Positions 3,141-59,607 of a stretch of DNA of 64,000 nt are shown piece by piece (the stretch's first letter is position 1; every line of letters begins with the position of its first letter). The notes beneath the pieces are model-generated. The model did not search any database and was not told the DNA's origin. It saw nothing but the letters and a program-made list of their open reading frames with translations. Both the position numbers and the translations under genes were made by a program. The DNA is from a virus (lineage: Duplodnaviria > Caudoviricetes), in IMG/VR virus record IMGVR_UViG_3300005686_000008; one strand, written 5' to 3'.

Positions 3141-3854
3141 ATGCTCTACGAGTTGATTACAATTGGATCTGTATTCTTTTGGATTCTTTGCGGACTATTC
3201 TCTGTTGTACTTTTGGCAGAGATAGTTTATGAGAAGTTTGCAGCAGCATTAGCAACTCTTCTTGTATTCTGTGTCATTTTCTTTGGTTTTACAAACCTAA
3301 GCTGGGCCTATATATCTGAACATCAAGACCGTATTTGGATGGGTTTCGGTTTGTATTTTGTTGGAGCCCTGGTAACTTCTCTCGTAAAATGGTACTTCTT
3401 TGTTAGCGATGCAAGAGATAGGTACGAAGAAGTAAAGAGCGAGTTTCTCAGAGCCGCAGGCCATGAGGGAGAAAAGACAATCCCTCAAGACTTACAAGTT
3501 GAATGGAACAAAAGGTTGTGTACAGTCTATGAGGGGTCTCATAAGTGGAGTTGCGATGCTGTTATCCAAATATCAACGATTATTCCAAGCGCAAAAGAAA
3601 ATAAAGAAAGAATCCTCGGATGGATGGCTTATTGGCCTTTCGTTGTTTTCTGGTCTATCTTCCATGATTTCCTGAGAAGAGTTTGGGAACTCATTTATAA
3701 GTTCTCAAGTAAGATTTTCCAGTGTATCTCTCTTATTCTGTTCAGGGGCGTTGCCGATGAAATTAAAGCGGCTAATGAGGCTAAAATAAAGGCTATGGAA
3801 GAGAAAGAAAAAGCGCAAAATGCTCAAAGAGGCTTTACAAAATATGGCTCTTAA
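3141..3854 (+). CDS. Membrane protein, hypothetical
   Basis: Three to four hydrophobic segments; RBS aaggaa. Confidence 0.6.
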   Translation: MLYELITIGSVFFWILCGLFSVVLLAEIVYEKFAAALATLLVFCVIFFGFTNLSWAYISEHQDRIWMGFGLYFVGALVTSLVKWYFFVSDARDRYEEVKSEFLRAAGHEGEKTIPQDLQVEWNKRLCTVYEGSHKWSCDAVIQISTIIPSAKENKERILGWMAYWPFVVFWSIFHDFLRRVWELIYKFSSKIFQCISLILFRGVADEIKAANEAKIKAMEEKEKAQNAQRGFTKYGS

Positions 3855-3869
3855 TAGGATTGAGATGCA

Positions 3870-4112
3870 ATGAGCTATGAATATAACGAAAATGATGCTG
3901 ATAAACTGACTTCTAGAAAAATTACAATCTGCAACAATATCCTATCCGCCTGTAAGAAACAGAACTTTTGTCTTGGAGAGCTGTCTCTTTTATCAGGACT
4001 ATCAGAAGAGTATGTTTATAAAATATCTACGCATTCTGTTCTTCCTTCCAAGAAGGCTCTTGCAGCCATTGCGGTTGCCCTTCATGTTCCGATAGAAACT
4101 CTAAACGCATAA
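3870..4112 (+). CDS. XRE/Cro-like HTH protein
   Basis: LGELSLLSGLSEEYVYKI...PS...LAAIAVALHVPIETL. Confidence 0.7.
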   Translation: MSYEYNENDADKLTSRKITICNNILSACKKQNFCLGELSLLSGLSEEYVYKISTHSVLPSKKALAAIAVALHVPIETLNA

Positions 4113-4120
4113 GGTGTTAA

Positions 4121-4393
4121 ATGGCAATTGAAAGACCTCCAATTTCATCGCAAGCCTTTGAGGAAGCAATCAAACTAATCCGGGAAAGATTTGCTAAAGC
4201 AATTGAGAAGCACGGTCCCGGAGCCTTTTTGTCTTGGCACGAAATCGTTGGGAAAATCATGGAAGAGCATAATGAATTCATGGTTGAAGTCCAGCATGAA
4301 ACTCCAAAAAGATCAGCAGAACTTACAGATATTGCCGTTGCTGCAATTTGGGGGTTGGCAAGCCATATAGATAATGCTTTACTAAAAGACTAG
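4121..4393 (+). CDS. MazG-like nucleotide pyrophosphohydrolase
   Basis: IMEEHNEF...AELTDIAVAAI acidic helices. Confidence 0.55.
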   Translation: MAIERPPISSQAFEEAIKLIRERFAKAIEKHGPGAFLSWHEIVGKIMEEHNEFMVEVQHETPKRSAELTDIAVAAIWGLASHIDNALLKD

Positions 4394-4424
4394 TTTGCCG
4401 ATATATGAGCAAAGGAGATTTTTT

Positions 4425-5363
4425 ATGACAGGTTGTTGCGTTTGGCTTACTGGACTTCCTTGCTCTGGCAAAACAAGTCTTGCTGTTAAACTTTCTAACA
4501 TTCTTACTTTAGGATACAAGAAGAATGATGTTCTCGATGGCGATGAACTAAGAAAGCATTTCTCTAAAGGTCTTGGCTTTTCAAGGGAAGACCGCATAGA
4601 GAATGGCAATAGAATCGCTCTCTTGGCCTCCAAGATAGCTAAGCATAATGGGATTTCCATTGTTAGCCTTGTATCTCCGTATCAAGAAATGAGAGATAAT
4701 GCAAGGGCAATGGTTGAAAAAGAAGGTGGCAAGTTCTTTGAAGTCTTTGTAAAGACTCCCCTTGAAGTTTGCAAAAATAGAGACACGAAAGGGATGTACG
4801 CTCTTGCTAACAAAGGGGTAATACAGAACTTTACCGGAGTTAGCGATCCATACGAAGAACCAACGAATCCTGATCTTGTTGTTAGCGGGGAGCAGAATAT
4901 TCTTGACAGTGTAAATGCGATAATTACATTGCTTGCTTCTGAGGGTTGTGTTGGAATGTTTGCATATAGACCCAGGGCCCTGTTTATTGGTCGCTGGCAA
5001 CCGTTTCATAATGGACATGATTATATCATCAGGGAAAAACTTAGAGAAGGCATTCCGGTATTGATAGCCGTCCGAGATACTCCAATTGATTTGGGTAATC
5101 CCTTTACTTTGGAGGAAAGGATGGATATGATTAGAATGGCCTATGTTGGCGAGGACGTTCAAGTAATCTCCATTCCTGATATTGAAAGCGTCAACATTGG
5201 AAGAAACGTTGGTTATGCAGTCAACGAGTATCAAGTACCCGAAAACATCAAAGGCATTTCTGCAACACAGATTCGCAAGTTAATGGCAGAAAATAACTGG
5301 GAAGAAATAGCAAAACTTGTTCCTGTTGGGGTCTTGAATTTCTTATCGCAGAATAGAGGATGA
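4425..5363 (+). CDS. cysC: Adenylyl-sulfate kinase fused to an HxGH nucleotidyltransferase domain
   Basis: WLTGLPCSGKTS, LDGDELR, LGFSREDR.EN, SPY, RD.KG.Y, FTGVSDPYEEP; C-terminal FIGRWQPFHNGH...ISATQIRK; RBS aaggag at 4412. Confidence 0.88.
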   Translation: MTGCCVWLTGLPCSGKTSLAVKLSNILTLGYKKNDVLDGDELRKHFSKGLGFSREDRIENGNRIALLASKIAKHNGISIVSLVSPYQEMRDNARAMVEKEGGKFFEVFVKTPLEVCKNRDTKGMYALANKGVIQNFTGVSDPYEEPTNPDLVVSGEQNILDSVNAIITLLASEGCVGMFAYRPRALFIGRWQPFHNGHDYIIREKLREGIPVLIAVRDTPIDLGNPFTLEERMDMIRMAYVGEDVQVISIPDIESVNIGRNVGYAVNEYQVPENIKGISATQIRKLMAENNWEEIAKLVPVGVLNFLSQNRG

Positions 5364-41319: not shown

Positions 41320-41937
41320 ATGAAAGAATATCCGTCTATTGAAGGGCCTCTTGGTGACTTTGGAAAGCCTTGTATTGCTTTTTATAAGTATGATGGTAGC
41401 AACCTGCGATTTGAATGGACCCCTAAGAATGGTTGGACTAAGTTTGGAACCAGAACGAGACTATTTGATAAGACCGATCCTGTTTTTGGTTGCGCAATAG
41501 ATATCTTCATGGCGACACAATCTGAAGGCATTGAGCGAGTTATTAGAAACACAAAAGAGTTTCGTAATAACGAACGAGTAACAGCTTATTGCGAGTTCTT
41601 TGGCCCCAAATCGTTTGCTGGCATCCATGATTTAGAGCCAGACAACGATCCCAAGGAACTTGTTTTATTTGACATAAACTTCCACAAGAAGGGCATTCTT
41701 GGGCCGAGGGATTTTGTGAAACACTTTGGTCATCTCAAGTCTGCTCAGGTTGTTTATGATGGCAACTTTAATCAAGAGCTGATTAACGCTGTACGCAATA
41801 GGACTCTTCCTGTTTGGGAAGGAGTTGTTGCCAAGGGCGGCTCTGGACATGATTTATGGATGCGCAAAATCAAGTCCAACGACTATCTTGATAAATTGAA
41901 AGCCGTCTTTGCTGGCGAATGGGAAAAGTACGTCTAA
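41320..41937 (+). CDS. RNA ligase (Rnl2-like nucleotidyltransferase domain)
   Basis: Motif I KYDGSN, III CEFFG, IIIa LFDI, IV EGVV, V KIK. Confidence 0.8.
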   Translation: MKEYPSIEGPLGDFGKPCIAFYKYDGSNLRFEWTPKNGWTKFGTRTRLFDKTDPVFGCAIDIFMATQSEGIERVIRNTKEFRNNERVTAYCEFFGPKSFAGIHDLEPDNDPKELVLFDINFHKKGILGPRDFVKHFGHLKSAQVVYDGNFNQELINAVRNRTLPVWEGVVAKGGSGHDLWMRKIKSNDYLDKLKAVFAGEWEKYV

Positions 41938-43714: not shown

Positions 43715-43870
43715 ATGAACCAGTCAGGTATAGCAAAGAAGGCGTGGAAAACTCGTAAGGAAAATGAAGTGAAAGAAAAGAGATCAAATGCTGCTAAGAA
43801 AGCGCATGTGACTCGCAATAGGAAATCTGCCGCTAAGAAAGCCTGGAAGACTCGCAGGGAGAATGATTAA
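43715..43870 (+). CDS. Small basic protein (51 aa) with three AKKA(W/H)xTR repeats
   Basis: RBS aggag; MNQSGIAKKAWKTRK...AAKKAHVTR...AAKKAWKTRREND; below the ORF-track cutoff. Confidence 0.75.
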   Translation: MNQSGIAKKAWKTRKENEVKEKRSNAAKKAHVTRNRKSAAKKAWKTRREND

Positions 43871-43871
43871 G

Positions 43872-46100
43872 ATGCCACTTACGCAAGACCAAATTGAGGC
43901 AAGAAAGCCTAATGCTTTTCCAAAGACTTTCTTTAGCTTAGATTCTACATCAAAAGTTAAATCTATCACTCTTCCAGATGAATTTGAAGAGTTAATCTTT
44001 ATTCCTCGTGATGTTCAAAAAAACCCTCTTGAGTTTTTTTGCAACAGACATAATAATAAGAAACGAATCTCTGGAGCTATTTTAACAACAGGTGCAGGCA
44101 AGAGTAAATTGGCAAGTTTTAGCGCCTGTGAAATTCTTCGACAAAACAGCAAAATGAGGTTCATAATCGCTGTTCCTCAAGAAGTTATTGGAGAAAGTTG
44201 GAGGCATGGAAGTGATGAAGAGATTTCCAATTTCTTACTTGGAAAAGAAAACTGGAAACTATTTGAAGGCTTGTCTGAAGAAGATATGAAGAAGTGGAAA
44301 ACTCTTAGACTTTTTGATTCCAATGATGTTGTTTCCTGGAGCATTAATACAGACTTATGCCGTGGGGCAGGTAAAGCTTGTCAAACAGAGAACAGTAAGG
44401 TTATGGAGCTTATTAATTTCCTGAGACAACCTCCATCAAAATCTGTTTGTTCCAGAATAGCTCTTGTTTCTCACTCAACACTTGCTAGAGCATATAAAAA
44501 GATTGAAAAAGAAAAACGTTTGCATCTTTTTTGTAATACCATTACTTGTATTGACGAGTTTCATCATCTTTATGTTGACAATAACAAGGATGAATGCAAT
44601 TCTCTTGGTGAACTTGTTTATTGCCTCGCCGAGAAAGGCGACAATTTAAACGCCTTTGTTTGGTGTCTTACTGGCACTTTCTTTAGAGGCGACCGTAGAA
44701 GAATTTTTGGCAACGAGTTTAATGATCTAGTCAACGATGCTTTCTACGAGCTTCCATTTGATGAATACTTTAAGACAATGAAGTTTCTCAATAAACTTCT
44801 ATACAGATTTGGAGTGTTCAATATTGAAAATGGATACTCTGACGCTATTGCCAGTACCATTGCTAGCGATGGAATTAATAAAACTCTAATCTTTATCCCA
44901 TCCAGAACAAAAGGTGAGTCGTCCTTATTCCCTGTTTGCAAGAAAAAGGATGAGATCAAAGGAGTTCTAAAAGGAATCGTTAAGGGGGCAGGATGGAACG
45001 GAGAAGTGGAGACAGCTCCATACATTACCAGCGATGGAACAACTAACAAAGCGATTTTCAAACTGAGAGTTGAAGAGAACAAGTGGATTACGGTTGTTGA
45101 TGCTGTTGATGATGAAGATCATATTCGTAAGGGAGTAAAAGCGTTCCTAAGAAAAGTAAATAGCGGGAAAGATAATGTTGACATTATCATTGCTCTTGGT
45201 ATGTGCAAAGAAGGATTCGACTGGATTGCTTGCGACAGAATCATTCAGGTTGGTATTATTAAAAGTCTTGGAGTCATTGTTCAAGTCAACGGAAGAATGA
45301 TTAGAGATTTTGCTGGCAAGAATGTTGCGCAAATGACATGGCTCTTCCCGTCTTCTTCAAAAATTGATAAAGACTCTATTGCTGAAGACCTGAATGAAGC
45401 GCTAATGACTATTAATCTTGCTCTTATGATGTGCGTTGACATCATGCAGCCAATCAAGATTTCTGTTCCTAAAAAAGATAACCCTAATGAACAGGAAGAA
45501 ATTTCTGGCGGAGACCTTCTTAGCGAACTATTTGTAGAAATGGATGATCGTACAACCTTCTTGACTATGGTATCAGCCAAGATTGCTGCTATTGGTGGCA
45601 ATATATCATTTGAAGATAGAGTCTTGATTGTTTCTGATTTGCTTCTTGAGTTTGGAGTTGATGAGGATGATGTTACTTTTTACAAAGAAGCGGTAGCAAC
45701 TTACACACTAAAACGAGCCGCAGCAATCCTGTCAAATAAGGATTTCCGTCTTTCATTGGATTTTGATTCTCCAATCATTCGTGAAATGTGTAAAGAATTC
45801 AATATTGTCAACCCAGAAGATATTTCTCCAGAAGGATTGATTGCTTTTTTTGCTGCTGATGCGATTGGTGTTTCTTCATTTGAGACTTACAGGAAGGCTG
45901 TCACTCGTATTTCTATGAGTTATAGCGAAGAGGCATTCAATGAATTCCAGATAAGTATGGATAAGTTCAGAAAAGATAACAATAGGATGCCAGATCTTGA
46001 ATCTGAAAACGAGAGCGAAAGAGAACTCGCAGAAGAGCGCAATAGGTGGATAAATAATCGCATCTTAATAAATTGTGCGCGTAGTATGGAGAGGGAATAG
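43872..46100 (+). CDS. SF2 (DEXH, Res-like) helicase with a partial C-terminal helicase-associated repeat
   Basis: TTGAGKS, IDEFHH, LTGTFFRGD, KEGFDW, QVNGRMIR. Confidence 0.88.
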   Translation: MPLTQDQIEARKPNAFPKTFFSLDSTSKVKSITLPDEFEELIFIPRDVQKNPLEFFCNRHNNKKRISGAILTTGAGKSKLASFSACEILRQNSKMRFIIAVPQEVIGESWRHGSDEEISNFLLGKENWKLFEGLSEEDMKKWKTLRLFDSNDVVSWSINTDLCRGAGKACQTENSKVMELINFLRQPPSKSVCSRIALVSHSTLARAYKKIEKEKRLHLFCNTITCIDEFHHLYVDNNKDECNSLGELVYCLAEKGDNLNAFVWCLTGTFFRGDRRRIFGNEFNDLVNDAFYELPFDEYFKTMKFLNKLLYRFGVFNIENGYSDAIASTIASDGINKTLIFIPSRTKGESSLFPVCKKKDEIKGVLKGIVKGAGWNGEVETAPYITSDGTTNKAIFKLRVEENKWITVVDAVDDEDHIRKGVKAFLRKVNSGKDNVDIIIALGMCKEGFDWIACDRIIQVGIIKSLGVIVQVNGRMIRDFAGKNVAQMTWLFPSSSKIDKDSIAEDLNEALMTINLALMMCVDIMQPIKISVPKKDNPNEQEEISGGDLLSELFVEMDDRTTFLTMVSAKIAAIGGNISFEDRVLIVSDLLLEFGVDEDDVTFYKEAVATYTLKRAAAILSNKDFRLSLDFDSPIIREMCKEFNIVNPEDISPEGLIAFFAADAIGVSSFETYRKAVTRISMSYSEEAFNEFQISMDKFRKDNNRMPDLESENESERELAEERNRWINNRILINCARSMERE

Positions 46101-46828
46101 TGTTCAAGAGTTATCATATAAAAGCTATCAAGTATCTTGAAAGCCTAGATGGACACTATTGGCCGCAACCACGAGATTTAGATGCGCAATGGCAAGAGAA
46201 TGCTGACAAGTTGAAAACCTTTGTAAATAAATACAATAGGTTGCCAAGTTTTCGTACCAAAGATTCGGAAGAAAAGAAGATTGGCAGTTGGGCAAGTCAT
46301 CAAAGACGAAATTACAAAGGTAGTGGTAACAGAACTCTTACTAGAGAGCAGATTGCTTTTTTAGAAAGTATTCCTGGTTGGTACTGGGAAAAAGATTTAG
46401 ATGGATTGTGGCAAGAGTATGCAAATAATCTAAAAGCCTTTGTTGATAAACGCAAAAGGTTGCCAAATTTCCGTTCCAAAGATTCAGAAGAAAAGAAGAT
46501 TGGTAAATGGATGCATCATCAAAGACAAAATTACAAAGGTAGCGGAAAAAGAACTCTCACTCAAGAGCAGATTGCTTTCTTAGAAAGCATTCCTGGTTGG
46601 TACTGGGATGTTGATGAATTATGGCAAGAGAACGCAAACAATCTGAAAGCCTTTGTAAAGAAATACAATAGGTTGCCAATCTCTAATTCTAAAGATTCAG
46701 AGGAAAAAAAGATTGGTAACTGGATGTATCTTCAAAGACGAAATTACAAAGGTAAAGGTAGTAGAGTTCTTACTCAAGAACAGATTGCTTTTTTAGAATC
46801 TATTCCTGGTTGGAAGTGGAGCGGATAA
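46100..46828 (+). CDS. Helicase-associated (HA) repeat protein, 3 repeats
   Basis: 3 x WQE.A..LK.FV....RLP....KDSEEKKIG.W...QR.NYKG.G.R.LT.EQIAFLESIPGW.W; GTG overlaps the helicase TAG. Confidence 0.85.
   Translation: MFKSYHIKAIKYLESLDGHYWPQPRDLDAQWQENADKLKTFVNKYNRLPSFRTKDSEEKKIGSWASHQRRNYKGSGNRTLTREQIAFLESIPGWYWEKDLDGLWQEYANNLKAFVDKRKRLPNFRSKDSEEKKIGKWMHHQRQNYKGSGKRTLTQEQIAFLESIPGWYWDVDELWQENANNLKAFVKKYNRLPISNSKDSEEKKIGNWMYLQRRNYKGKGSRVLTQEQIAFLESIPGWKWSG
46176..46822 (+). repeat. Three near-identical ~210-bp tandem coding repeats
   Basis: Repeated aaagattc..aagaaaagaagattgg and cagattgcttt.ttagaa...attcctggttgg. Confidence 0.85.
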
Positions 46829-47526
46829 TGACCATTACCTCTAAAACTTACACCGGCTGTCCTCGCAAGCAAGCTGCTAGAGATGCTACAATCATCAATC
46901 TATACAAACAACTGCGAGGGCCATCTATCCCTTTAAATAAGCAGTATTGGAGCATGTGCGCTCATTGTGCTAATAAAGATGGTATCATAGAAGGCTCAGA
47001 ACTTGACCAAATAATTAAAGCTGGTTTGATAAAGCAAGAACAGTTTCATGGAGTTGATAATTTTCGAGATAAAAATACCGGCGAGTTAAGTATCTATAAT
47101 TCAAATTCTCAATATTCAGGTTGTCATTGGTATGGAGAAGATTTTCTTATTGCCATGCAGGAAGAGCAGTCTGCCGGCAAATTCAATCCAGAAATAGTCA
47201 ATGCAGACCTTATCAATATGCATGAGGGAGCAGCAAGTCGAGCCGGAAAGATTTTGAATTTCCTGCATGATTCAGGTAATGTTGATACTATTTTTATCCT
47301 TAACGTTGTTCTAAAAGCCCATAATCGCCATTCTGATGTTGTAGACCTAGAAAAAAGTTTATGCAAGGATTCTATATTTAGAATTATTTGGAATAAGGGG
47401 TTGTGGAAAATACTAGGAAACGAAGTGTATACATATCATGGAACCCAACCTAATAAAAGCGTCAATAATGATGTAAAGAATCCCAAAACGATTATGGGAA
47501 CAGTTGTATTTGTTCCCAACAAGTAA
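46828..47526 (+). CDS. Hypothetical protein, possibly a divergent Rossmann methyltransferase fold
   Basis: FHGVD, WYGEDF, IVNADL spaced like class I MTase strands; no canonical GxG. Confidence 0.45.
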   Translation: MTITSKTYTGCPRKQAARDATIINLYKQLRGPSIPLNKQYWSMCAHCANKDGIIEGSELDQIIKAGLIKQEQFHGVDNFRDKNTGELSIYNSNSQYSGCHWYGEDFLIAMQEEQSAGKFNPEIVNADLINMHEGAASRAGKILNFLHDSGNVDTIFILNVVLKAHNRHSDVVDLEKSLCKDSIFRIIWNKGLWKILGNEVYTYHGTQPNKSVNNDVKNPKTIMGTVVFVPNK

Positions 47527-47531
47527 AAAAT

Positions 47532-48530
47532 ATGAAATCGTATCATATAAAAGCTGTCAAGTATCTTGAGAATCTTCCAGGTCATCGCTGGCCCAATCGT
47601 TCAGACAGATCTGTAGAGCATAATCAAAAGATTTTGTTGAAAATGGCTGATGAAAAAAAGCCAAGACCAAAGCATAATACGAAAATTGGCAAAGCTCTTA
47701 TTCGATATACTACAGGTAATAATCGTAATAGCAATTTTGATATAAGAATCAGAGAAAAAATACCAGAGTGGTTTATCAGCCAATCTGATATTGCTAATCA
47801 AAAAAAGCAAATGTTCTTGGATATGGCTAGTAGAGGAGAGCCTCGTCCTAGTTCAAAAACAAAAATGGGGAAATTGCTTTATGCATATCTAGATAAAAAC
47901 CATCATCTATATGATGAAGATTTTGAATCAGATTTATCTAAATTTCCAGAATGGATAATTAAAGTATCCGAAAGAGTAGCTAAAAACAAATCAATTCTTC
48001 TAGAAATGGCTGAATCTGGAAAACCCAAACCAAAGAGAGGTTCTTCTCTAAGAAATTTGTTAGACAATTACATGAGAGATGATGATGTATTTAGGGGAAA
48101 AATTATAGAATCCAACACTGCTTGGGCACCAAAAGCAAAGAATGAAATTGAACAGAAAAAACAATTAATTCTAAATATGGCTCGAAATAACGAACCTAAA
48201 CCAAATTGCAATTCTGCACTAGGACAATTTCTTCGTAGACAAATGAAACGAGATAAAAAATTTGCAGCTCAAGTGCGCCTTATTAACCCAAATTGGGCTG
48301 CAAAAAGATCTAACATAGCACCTAGAAATAAAGCAATACTTTCAAAAATGGCCAGAAGAGGAGATCCAAGACCAAAAGCTAATACAAAGCTTGGCGGAGC
48401 GTTGCATTCATATACAACAATTGGACATAAAGCATATGATTCTTCTTTCGACAAATCTATTAGGTTTGATAGAAAAAACTGGTTTAGGATAAGAAGAAAA
48501 AACAGTGACAAATCTTTATCAAAATGCTAG
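47532..48530 (+). CDS. Basic protein with five ~58-aa repeats
   Basis: 5 x K..LL.MA....P[RK]P.....G..L; N-terminus shared with 46100-46828. Confidence 0.75.
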   Translation: MKSYHIKAVKYLENLPGHRWPNRSDRSVEHNQKILLKMADEKKPRPKHNTKIGKALIRYTTGNNRNSNFDIRIREKIPEWFISQSDIANQKKQMFLDMASRGEPRPSSKTKMGKLLYAYLDKNHHLYDEDFESDLSKFPEWIIKVSERVAKNKSILLEMAESGKPKPKRGSSLRNLLDNYMRDDDVFRGKIIESNTAWAPKAKNEIEQKKQLILNMARNNEPKPNCNSALGQFLRRQMKRDKKFAAQVRLINPNWAAKRSNIAPRNKAILSKMARRGDPRPKANTKLGGALHSYTTIGHKAYDSSFDKSIRFDRKNWFRIRRKNSDKSLSKC

Positions 48531-59085: not shown

Positions 59086-59607
59086 ATGGCTGAATCTAAG
59101 AAACAAATAGAGTGGAATGAAAATCTTGAAAAAGTGAAGCAGTTTGCGAGCGCCAACAAGAAGTGGCCCTCCACAACTTCTAAGGATGAAACAGAAAAGA
59201 ACCTTGGACAATGGTGGAGTAGGCAAAAGTACCTGCTTACTAATAATAAAGGCGAAGGTAAGGCAACCCTTTCTGATGAAAGAAAGGCCCTTGTAAGCGG
59301 AACTATTGAACTCTATTCTGAACTAGAAAGAGATGGAATCTGGGACAAGAAGTATGGAGTTATCGCTGATAAGATCAAGGCTGATGGAAAGTTGTGGAAG
59401 TATGCCACAGAAAATGAAGATGAACAGAAGAGCATCCGCTGGTGGAACCAACAGAAAACCTTTGCTCGCAAGTTCAAAGCAAATCCCACCGGGTCGTTCG
59501 GCGGAATGAATCAGCCTCGCTATGATAAGGTTGTCGCTTTGATGAGAGTTATGGGCGATAACATTGATGAGATAGTTGTTGATCAGGCCTCTCCTGTTCA
59601 ACAGTAA
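59086..59607 (+). CDS. Stand-alone HA-repeat protein (2 repeats)
   Basis: WNENLEKVKQF......WPS...KDETEKNLGQWWSRQK; RBS aaggag. Confidence 0.75.
   Translation: MAESKKQIEWNENLEKVKQFASANKKWPSTTSKDETEKNLGQWWSRQKYLLTNNKGEGKATLSDERKALVSGTIELYSELERDGIWDKKYGVIADKIKADGKLWKYATENEDEQKSIRWWNQQKTFARKFKANPTGSFGGMNQPRYDKVVALMRVMGDNIDEIVVDQASPVQQ

Follow-up and report, generated by a model that had tools for sequence, protein, structure and literature searches.

A huge phage encodes, in one operon, a superfamily 2 (SF2) helicase that ends in the first two helices of an HA repeat and two repeat-array proteins that open with the third helix, the piece that the helicase lacks. From their sequences, the two fragments together appear to make exactly one domain, and we consider it probable that interchangeable arrays dock on a single helicase by fragment complementation. 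The operon lies in a window of 64,000 nucleotides, the minus strand of bases 286598-350597 of the 370,652-bp IMG/VR virus record IMGVR_UViG_3300005686_000008 (Caudoviricetes), which is estimated to be 73% complete. The genes of this genome are densely packed and lie largely on one strand, and many tRNA genes are present.

Complementary HA fragments within one operon

The four genes of the operon, all on the plus strand of the window, encode the helicase (43863-46100, 745 amino acids), open reading frame 2 (ORF2; 46100-46828, 242 amino acids, GTG start), ORF3 (46828-47526, 232 amino acids counted from a conserved ATG) and ORF4 (47532-48530, 332 amino acids). Helicase and ORF2 meet at TAGTG, where the GTG start of ORF2 shares one base with the helicase TAG, ORF2 and ORF3 overlap at TAATG, and a 5-nucleotide gap separates ORF3 from ORF4; the genes therefore form one operon. 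Scans for terminators and promoters within it gave only chance-level signals, and the overlapping stop and start codons (TAGTG, TAATG) fit a co-translation of subunits.

The helicase contains a Walker A motif, a DExH box (here DEFH) and two RecA-like domains, and it matches Pfam ResIII (E 3e-7), Pfam Helicase_C and PHROG 16 (DNA helicase), all of which place it in SF2. The Walker A glycine, lysine and serine and the DE.HH box are invariant among 45 helicase relatives. Among structures similar to its AlphaFold model are helicases of the RecQ, Ski2-like and Type ISP kinds, and the Foldseek search, which recovered RecQ, Brr2 and LlaBIII, gave generic SF2 matches only. Neither PADLOC nor NCBIfam gave a meaningful family assignment to the helicase, to ORF3 or to ORF4.

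The C-terminal part of the helicase (residues 689-730, 45927-46052, plus strand) follows a flexible linker (residues 664-686) and resembles the beginning of an HA repeat. When the C-termini of four related helicases, that of the window and three relatives, were compared with an HA-repeat profile by profile-profile alignment (hhalign), they matched with 95% probability (E 2.6e-8), and the match was confined to columns 2-47 of the repeat, which correspond to helices 1-2. The Pfam HA model gave no match to the tail at E <= 0.1, and the helicase C-terminus is thus best described, as far as profiles can tell, as an HA fragment and not as a member domain. With our own HA model, the tail was the top match outside ORF2 and a further HA protein at 59086-59607 (E 0.014, among 3795 six-frame ORFs of the 370-kb record). 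AlphaFold draws the two helices (residues 689-706 and 717-730) as a confident hairpin, with a predicted local distance difference test (pLDDT) of 81-92, and the linker as disordered (pLDDT <50).

ORF2 consists of a short N-terminal tag and three canonical HA repeats. Its three PF03457 stretches score 117.4 bits against a gathering cut-off of 28.4 (E 3.4e-34), so ORF2 belongs to the HA family, and its residues 26-90 match residues 4-66 of the 2KTA chain (phmmer, E 5.6e-5), the solved HA domain of a Bacteroides vulgatus helicase (Mills et al. 2013, as cited in a passage of PMC12191111). ORF4 carries a similar tag, followed by about five divergent HA-like repeats of about 60 amino acids each, which we call R4 and for which we built our own model. 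The tags span residues 2-22 of ORF2 (46103-46165, plus strand) and residues 2-21 of ORF4 (47535-47594, plus strand). Eight such N-terminal tags from the window and its relatives, compared profile to profile, match HA columns 56-70, that is, helix 3 (85% probability, E 6.7e-6), and our own hidden Markov model places residues 9-21 of ORF2 on model positions 54-66. The initial annotation, made from the letters alone, had claimed that the helicase holds the start but not the end of an HA repeat and that the genes at 46100 and 47532 open with the missing end; the profiles bear out both statements, with helices 1-2 on one side and helix 3 on the other.

The likeness of the two tags extends to their DNA. 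A direct repeat of 29 nucleotides lies within both (46112-46140 in ORF2 and 47541-47569 in ORF4, plus strand), with 28/29 positions identical, synonymous positions included, and with zero matches in 100 shuffles. As had also been noted before, the two genes then diverge: the flanking DNA is unrelated, and a canonical HA array follows one copy and an R4 array the other. Throughout the record, about 73% complete, the tag was found in ORF2 and ORF4 only, and further tagged genes may exist.

Repeat arrays and break points in related phages

ORF4 has no match in Pfam, from which the R4 repeat is absent, and the Pfam matches that R4 arrays do give are scattered, sub-threshold or repeat-driven and were set aside. 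Tblastn of ORF2 on the record reaches ORF4 over ORF2 residues 2-97 (E 1.5e-7). An exhaustive profile search of a library of 1.84 billion proteins recovered 975 cluster representatives of the R4 family. Among the best 150 of these matches, which comprise 30 long and 120 stand-alone proteins, 29/30 long ones are helicases with 4-10 R4 repeats reaching the C-terminus. Only 7/120 stand-alone arrays start with a whole repeat, and at least 79/120 start with a partial one, the starts falling into a small number of recurring classes: class A arrays start with helix 3 only, of the HA type; class B arrays with a second short N-terminal tag that is helix-3-like by eye only; class C arrays inside an R4 repeat; and class D arrays with helices 2-3 of a canonical HA repeat. 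In the R4 array at L008 11362-12333 and in other R4 arrays, helices 1 and 3 are near-identical among the repeats of one array and the differences lie mainly in and around helix 2, a pattern expected if helix 2 were to hold ligand-reading positions.

We located further viral loci by a scan with the tag plus the first repeat; array proteins of classes B and D, used as queries in viral scans, yielded no match. A megablast search of GenBank phages with the locus was likewise negative, tblastn of the helicase gave a single distant Ralstonia phage match, and a metagenome scan with the helicase alignment gave one 2.6-kb fragment only. In three of the related phages (L005, L006 and L008), the helicases are 42-55% identical to that of the window and all stop after helix 2, and the array genes begin at helix 3. 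Their gene orders differ, with an ORF3 homologue between helicase and arrays in L006 and L008 and with three tagged genes in L005. A break after helix 2 that is matched in both partners was found in 7/7 loci (the window, L005, L006, L008, L018, L020 and L031), with 1-4 tagged genes per locus. At L020 9933-11037, a fourth tagged paralogue extends over two overlapping frames (94, then 292 amino acids) and is probably a frameshifted copy.

Before inspecting the loci, we had recorded the expectation that class D arrays, which start with helix 2, would pair with a helicase that stops after helix 1. Both readable loci (2/2, L027 and L036) have the break after helix 1 in both partners. L027 has three arrays that open with helices 2-3, upstream of a 621-amino-acid helicase that ends right after a clear helix 1; in L036, an unrelated short contig, the gene upstream of the class D array ends just past helix 1 and overlaps the array start. 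The break point thus varies together in the two partners.

Fused relatives exist as well (L030, L033 and L019, plus the 29/30 long database matches), and the arrays inside fused proteins begin with helix 1. When split helicases were aligned with fused ones (36-45% identity to that of L027), the terminal fragment of the split forms fell on the first whole repeat of L030 and L033. When helicase tails and array tags were joined virtually, the window and two of the three L005 partners gave one match that continued across helix 3 as far as the last part of the repeat model, and L018 gave a match from helix 2 onward; these joins appear supportive of complementarity but are noisy.

ORF3 stands beside the helicase in every one of these arrangements that we examined, with a homologue in all 13 further loci (L005, L006, L008, L011, L012, L018, L020, L027 and L030-L034). 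Its structure model (pLDDT 81, predicted template-modelling score 0.82) has the predicted fold of a class I S-adenosylmethionine (SAM) methyltransferase. Foldseek returned 69 matches at E <= 0.001 with methyltransferases leading (template-modelling score ~0.5), and the top ones are all class I SAM methyltransferases. Conserved acidic residues lie at strand ends where expected in the ORF3 alignment, and searches of Pfam, NCBIfam and PADLOC gave no match. At L019 3799-7230 and L025 1-1092, a helicase, at least five R4 repeats and a C-terminal domain are joined in a single protein. This last domain shares four motifs with ORF3 in the same order, with a weak hhalign score (P 0.003, probability 10%), and is likely homologous to ORF3, judging from the shared motifs.

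Two further genes lie near the module: an RNA-ligase-like gene with a KxDG motif upstream (41320-41937) and RtcB immediately downstream (48737-50008). RtcB adjoins the module only in the closest relatives, L005 and L006, so a link of the module to RNA repair is not supported.

Probable docking and competing explanations

The simplest account of the complementary ends is fission of a helicase-array protein inside its first repeat, with the fragments retained as a subunit joint. That a split HA fold docks alternative repeat subunits had been proposed in the initial annotation, and this proposal fits the comparative data best. The four-gene operon would then encode a multi-subunit machine whose parts, in some related phages, form one polypeptide made of the helicase, an HA-type array and sometimes a terminal domain that is likely methyltransferase-like. 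In the lineage of the window, this polypeptide would have been cut inside the first repeat, which left helices 1-2 flexibly tethered to the helicase and put helix 3 at the start of each array protein. As the HA domain 2KTA is a small domain solved alone and annotated as three helices, we infer that the helix-3 tag inserts into the two-helix hairpin of the helicase and rebuilds one complete HA domain, which would join array and motor non-covalently. Because the tags of both arrays are nearly the same, both could use the same socket, and one motor may carry either the canonical HA array of ORF2 or the R4 array of ORF4, with the two arrays competing or exchanging. A cut inside a domain, and not between domains, would preserve the association of the fragments, which would explain the prevalence of partial first repeats. 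HA domains have been reported as DNA binders (Mills et al. 2013, as cited in a passage of PMC12191111), and on this basis the module would consist of a translocase and a methyltransferase-like effector, presumably ORF3, brought to nucleic acid by exchangeable arrays that are presumed to bind it and that may set specificity.

Several observations weigh against docking. Fifteen residues follow helix 2 in the window helicase, where AlphaFold draws a low-confidence helix (residues 733-744, pLDDT ~62), and in this model these residues could themselves cap the hairpin. The tail in a class B case, L034, resembles R4 helices 1-2 by eye only and was left out of the counts, and the evidence on class B is otherwise limited to gene spacing. 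Class C arrays (L019, L025) start within a repeat, the only helicase seen there is fused and ends in another domain, and no complementary helicase end (no partner ending after helix 1) was found at these two loci. In L019 and L025, every neighbouring array opens at the loop that precedes helix 2, and these arrays have a short N-terminal peptide in common. Bacterial relatives of the helicase, in operons with MmeI-like and T5orf172 genes, end in a two-helix motif with no tagged array nearby; the hairpin can occur without such a partner, or docks something else. Finally, the direct comparison of R4 and HA profiles is weak (P 0.044); our own HA model does match R4 arrays of an intermediate kind, those of L019 and L022, at 1e-9 to 1e-10, and homology of R4 to HA repeats is tentatively drawn mainly via these intermediates.

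Some of these points would suit a fission scar or capping helix, in which an ancestral fused gene broke within a repeat, helix 3 survives merely as a cap or stabiliser for the first repeat of the arrays, the hairpin works alone and no contact between the proteins through these pieces is needed. We consider this unlikely, even though bacterial relatives retain the two-helix end without tagged partners, class C arrays have partial starts with no complementary end in view, and the model adds one more helix beyond helix 2. Persistence across helicases only 42-55% identical, presence on 1-4 paralogues per genome and a joint shift in both partners are not expected of a scar, and the arrays of fused proteins begin at helix 1. 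Untagged arrays also exist in tagged genomes: a third HA-repeat protein in the window (59086-59607, plus strand, 173 amino acids, E 8.6e-12 with our own HA model) begins at helix 1, has no tag and was used as an internal control, and L020 encodes another untagged array at 3585-4730. Their presence in the same genomes argues that the tag is not a general cap and is not required for an array as such.

That the tag docks elsewhere, for example on ORF3, on a second array protein or on a protein of the host, is improbable in our view. The helicase lacks precisely the piece to which the tag is homologous and the break shifts in both together, and neither the Pfam search nor the structure model revealed an HA-like fragment in ORF3. 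The case for ORF3 as a partner comes from its homologue at every locus with tagged arrays and from the L019/L025 protein, in which a helicase, an array and the weakly ORF3-like C-terminal domain form one chain.

A third explanation is placed at the level of DNA, with the 29-nucleotide segment serving as a recombination site through which array genes downstream of a constant start are swapped or deleted. The near-identity of the two copies, synonymous positions included, between unrelated flanks would agree with such a cassette system, as would the varying number and order of array genes among relatives. In the window, 16/23 aligned residues are identical between the tags of ORF2 and ORF4, compared with 2-9/24 between genomes, and tags cluster by genome rather than by array type; the likeness of the window tags down to the DNA suggests gene conversion. 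A 1060-bp ENA contig, P0125, encodes a relative of ORF2 (70% identical) that starts at the same residue, has four repeats where ORF2 has three, and carries a tag that mixes residues from both window tags, which hints at tag exchange and a change of repeat number within the population. The repeats are direct, however, and an exchange between them deletes ORF2 and ORF3, and no recombinase gene was noticed beside the module, although no search aimed at one was made. In L005, the tags have diverged as DNA and retain their pattern as protein, which argues for selection acting on the peptide. We therefore give a cassette system little credence as the primary explanation. The earlier suggestion of recombination at the repeat stands in part: it probably occurs, most plausibly as an infrequent secondary event by which the tags stay alike, but it leaves the half repeat on the helicase unexplained.

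That the helicase and ORF2 are really one protein, through the -1 frameshift near TAGTG proposed in the initial annotation or through an assembly error, is very improbable: although the frames are offset by -1 at TAGTG and fused relatives exist, there is no slippery heptamer at the junction (46080-46102), ORF4 has the same tag 1.4 kb away, an ORF3 homologue intervenes in L006 and L008, the arrays of L027 lie upstream of the helicase, and the same helicase and ORF2 are found as identical split proteins on 9 and 11 independent contigs, respectively (one helicase contig being of 505,915 bp). With the split also kept in relatives, the notion that such helicases are always fused and that this one is an assembly artefact does not hold.

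Relation to known systems

The complementary break and its co-variation are contributions of this analysis; a literature search on HA-domain arrays in huge phages and on split-domain docking in helicases found nothing relevant, and we found no paper describing either feature. To our knowledge, natural proteins cut inside a domain and held by fragment complementation are rare one-to-one curiosities, whereas here the cut recurs in one huge-phage helicase family, at differing positions and with up to four alternative partners that have one plug in common. If docking is true, it would provide a simple natural rule for exchangeable subunits made from repeat proteins, explain the partial-repeat starts in most members of a large unnamed family (the 975 cluster representatives) and give a handle on an uncharacterised phage machine in which a helicase and a methyltransferase-fold protein are combined with arrays of repeats. 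As a pair, the short helix and the hairpin might also be engineered into a small tag for docking.

The closest known proteins are SF2 helicases with C-terminal HA repeats (PF03457, 2KTA), which share the motor class and the repeat family, and the fused relatives found here follow their classical arrangement, in which the array comes right behind the motor. The split systems differ in that the arrays are on separate proteins, cut through the first repeat, that several paralogous arrays share the complementing piece, and that most arrays are of the R4 type, undetected by Pfam. The nearest cellular relatives of the helicase (~25-30% identity) belong to bacterial operons of an MmeI-like methyltransferase/endonuclease, a helicase and a T5orf172 protein (L013 1815-8253 and L014 2245-8097). 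These helicases are likewise paired with a methyltransferase and have the same end of helix, conserved proline and helix, and because they share the two-helix end, the hairpin is old in the helicase family. Unlike the phage module, these operons have no tagged arrays and are part of a defence island; their T5orf172 gene, which overlaps the helicase gene, encodes a short acidic segment and then an HA-like domain of its own, and a comparable docking could take place there.

Docking domains of polyketide and non-ribosomal peptide synthases are short C- and N-terminal helical pieces that form a small bundle and set partner choice. Terminal helical pieces would pair subunits in both cases, without homology, but those docking domains are dedicated peptides, whereas here an ordinary repeat domain supplies the two halves and the same plug is present on several partners. 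Gene fission inside a fold is known from Nanoarchaeum, with its split reverse gyrase and further split genes, and from split DnaE inteins, whose fragments are presumed to reassemble. Those are one-to-one pairs, whereas here 1-4 alternative partners are available to one fragment and the break arose at two or more positions in related phages.

Type I restriction-modification systems combine one motor and methyltransferase core with exchangeable HsdS specificity subunits encoded nearby. The likeness to the phage module is a functional analogy only: the module has no HsdS homology and no nuclease, and sequence recognition by its arrays is putative. A bolder and rather doubtful extension would make the break point a plug-and-socket code and the HA and R4 arrays, maintained by huge phages as interchangeable families whose repeats differ chiefly at and near helix 2, modular nucleic-acid readers attached through a split repeat to a common helicase-methyltransferase engine, giving multi-target and easily re-assorted targeting; by analogy, its logic would be comparable to that of alternative Type I specificity subunits or TALE-like repeat readers.

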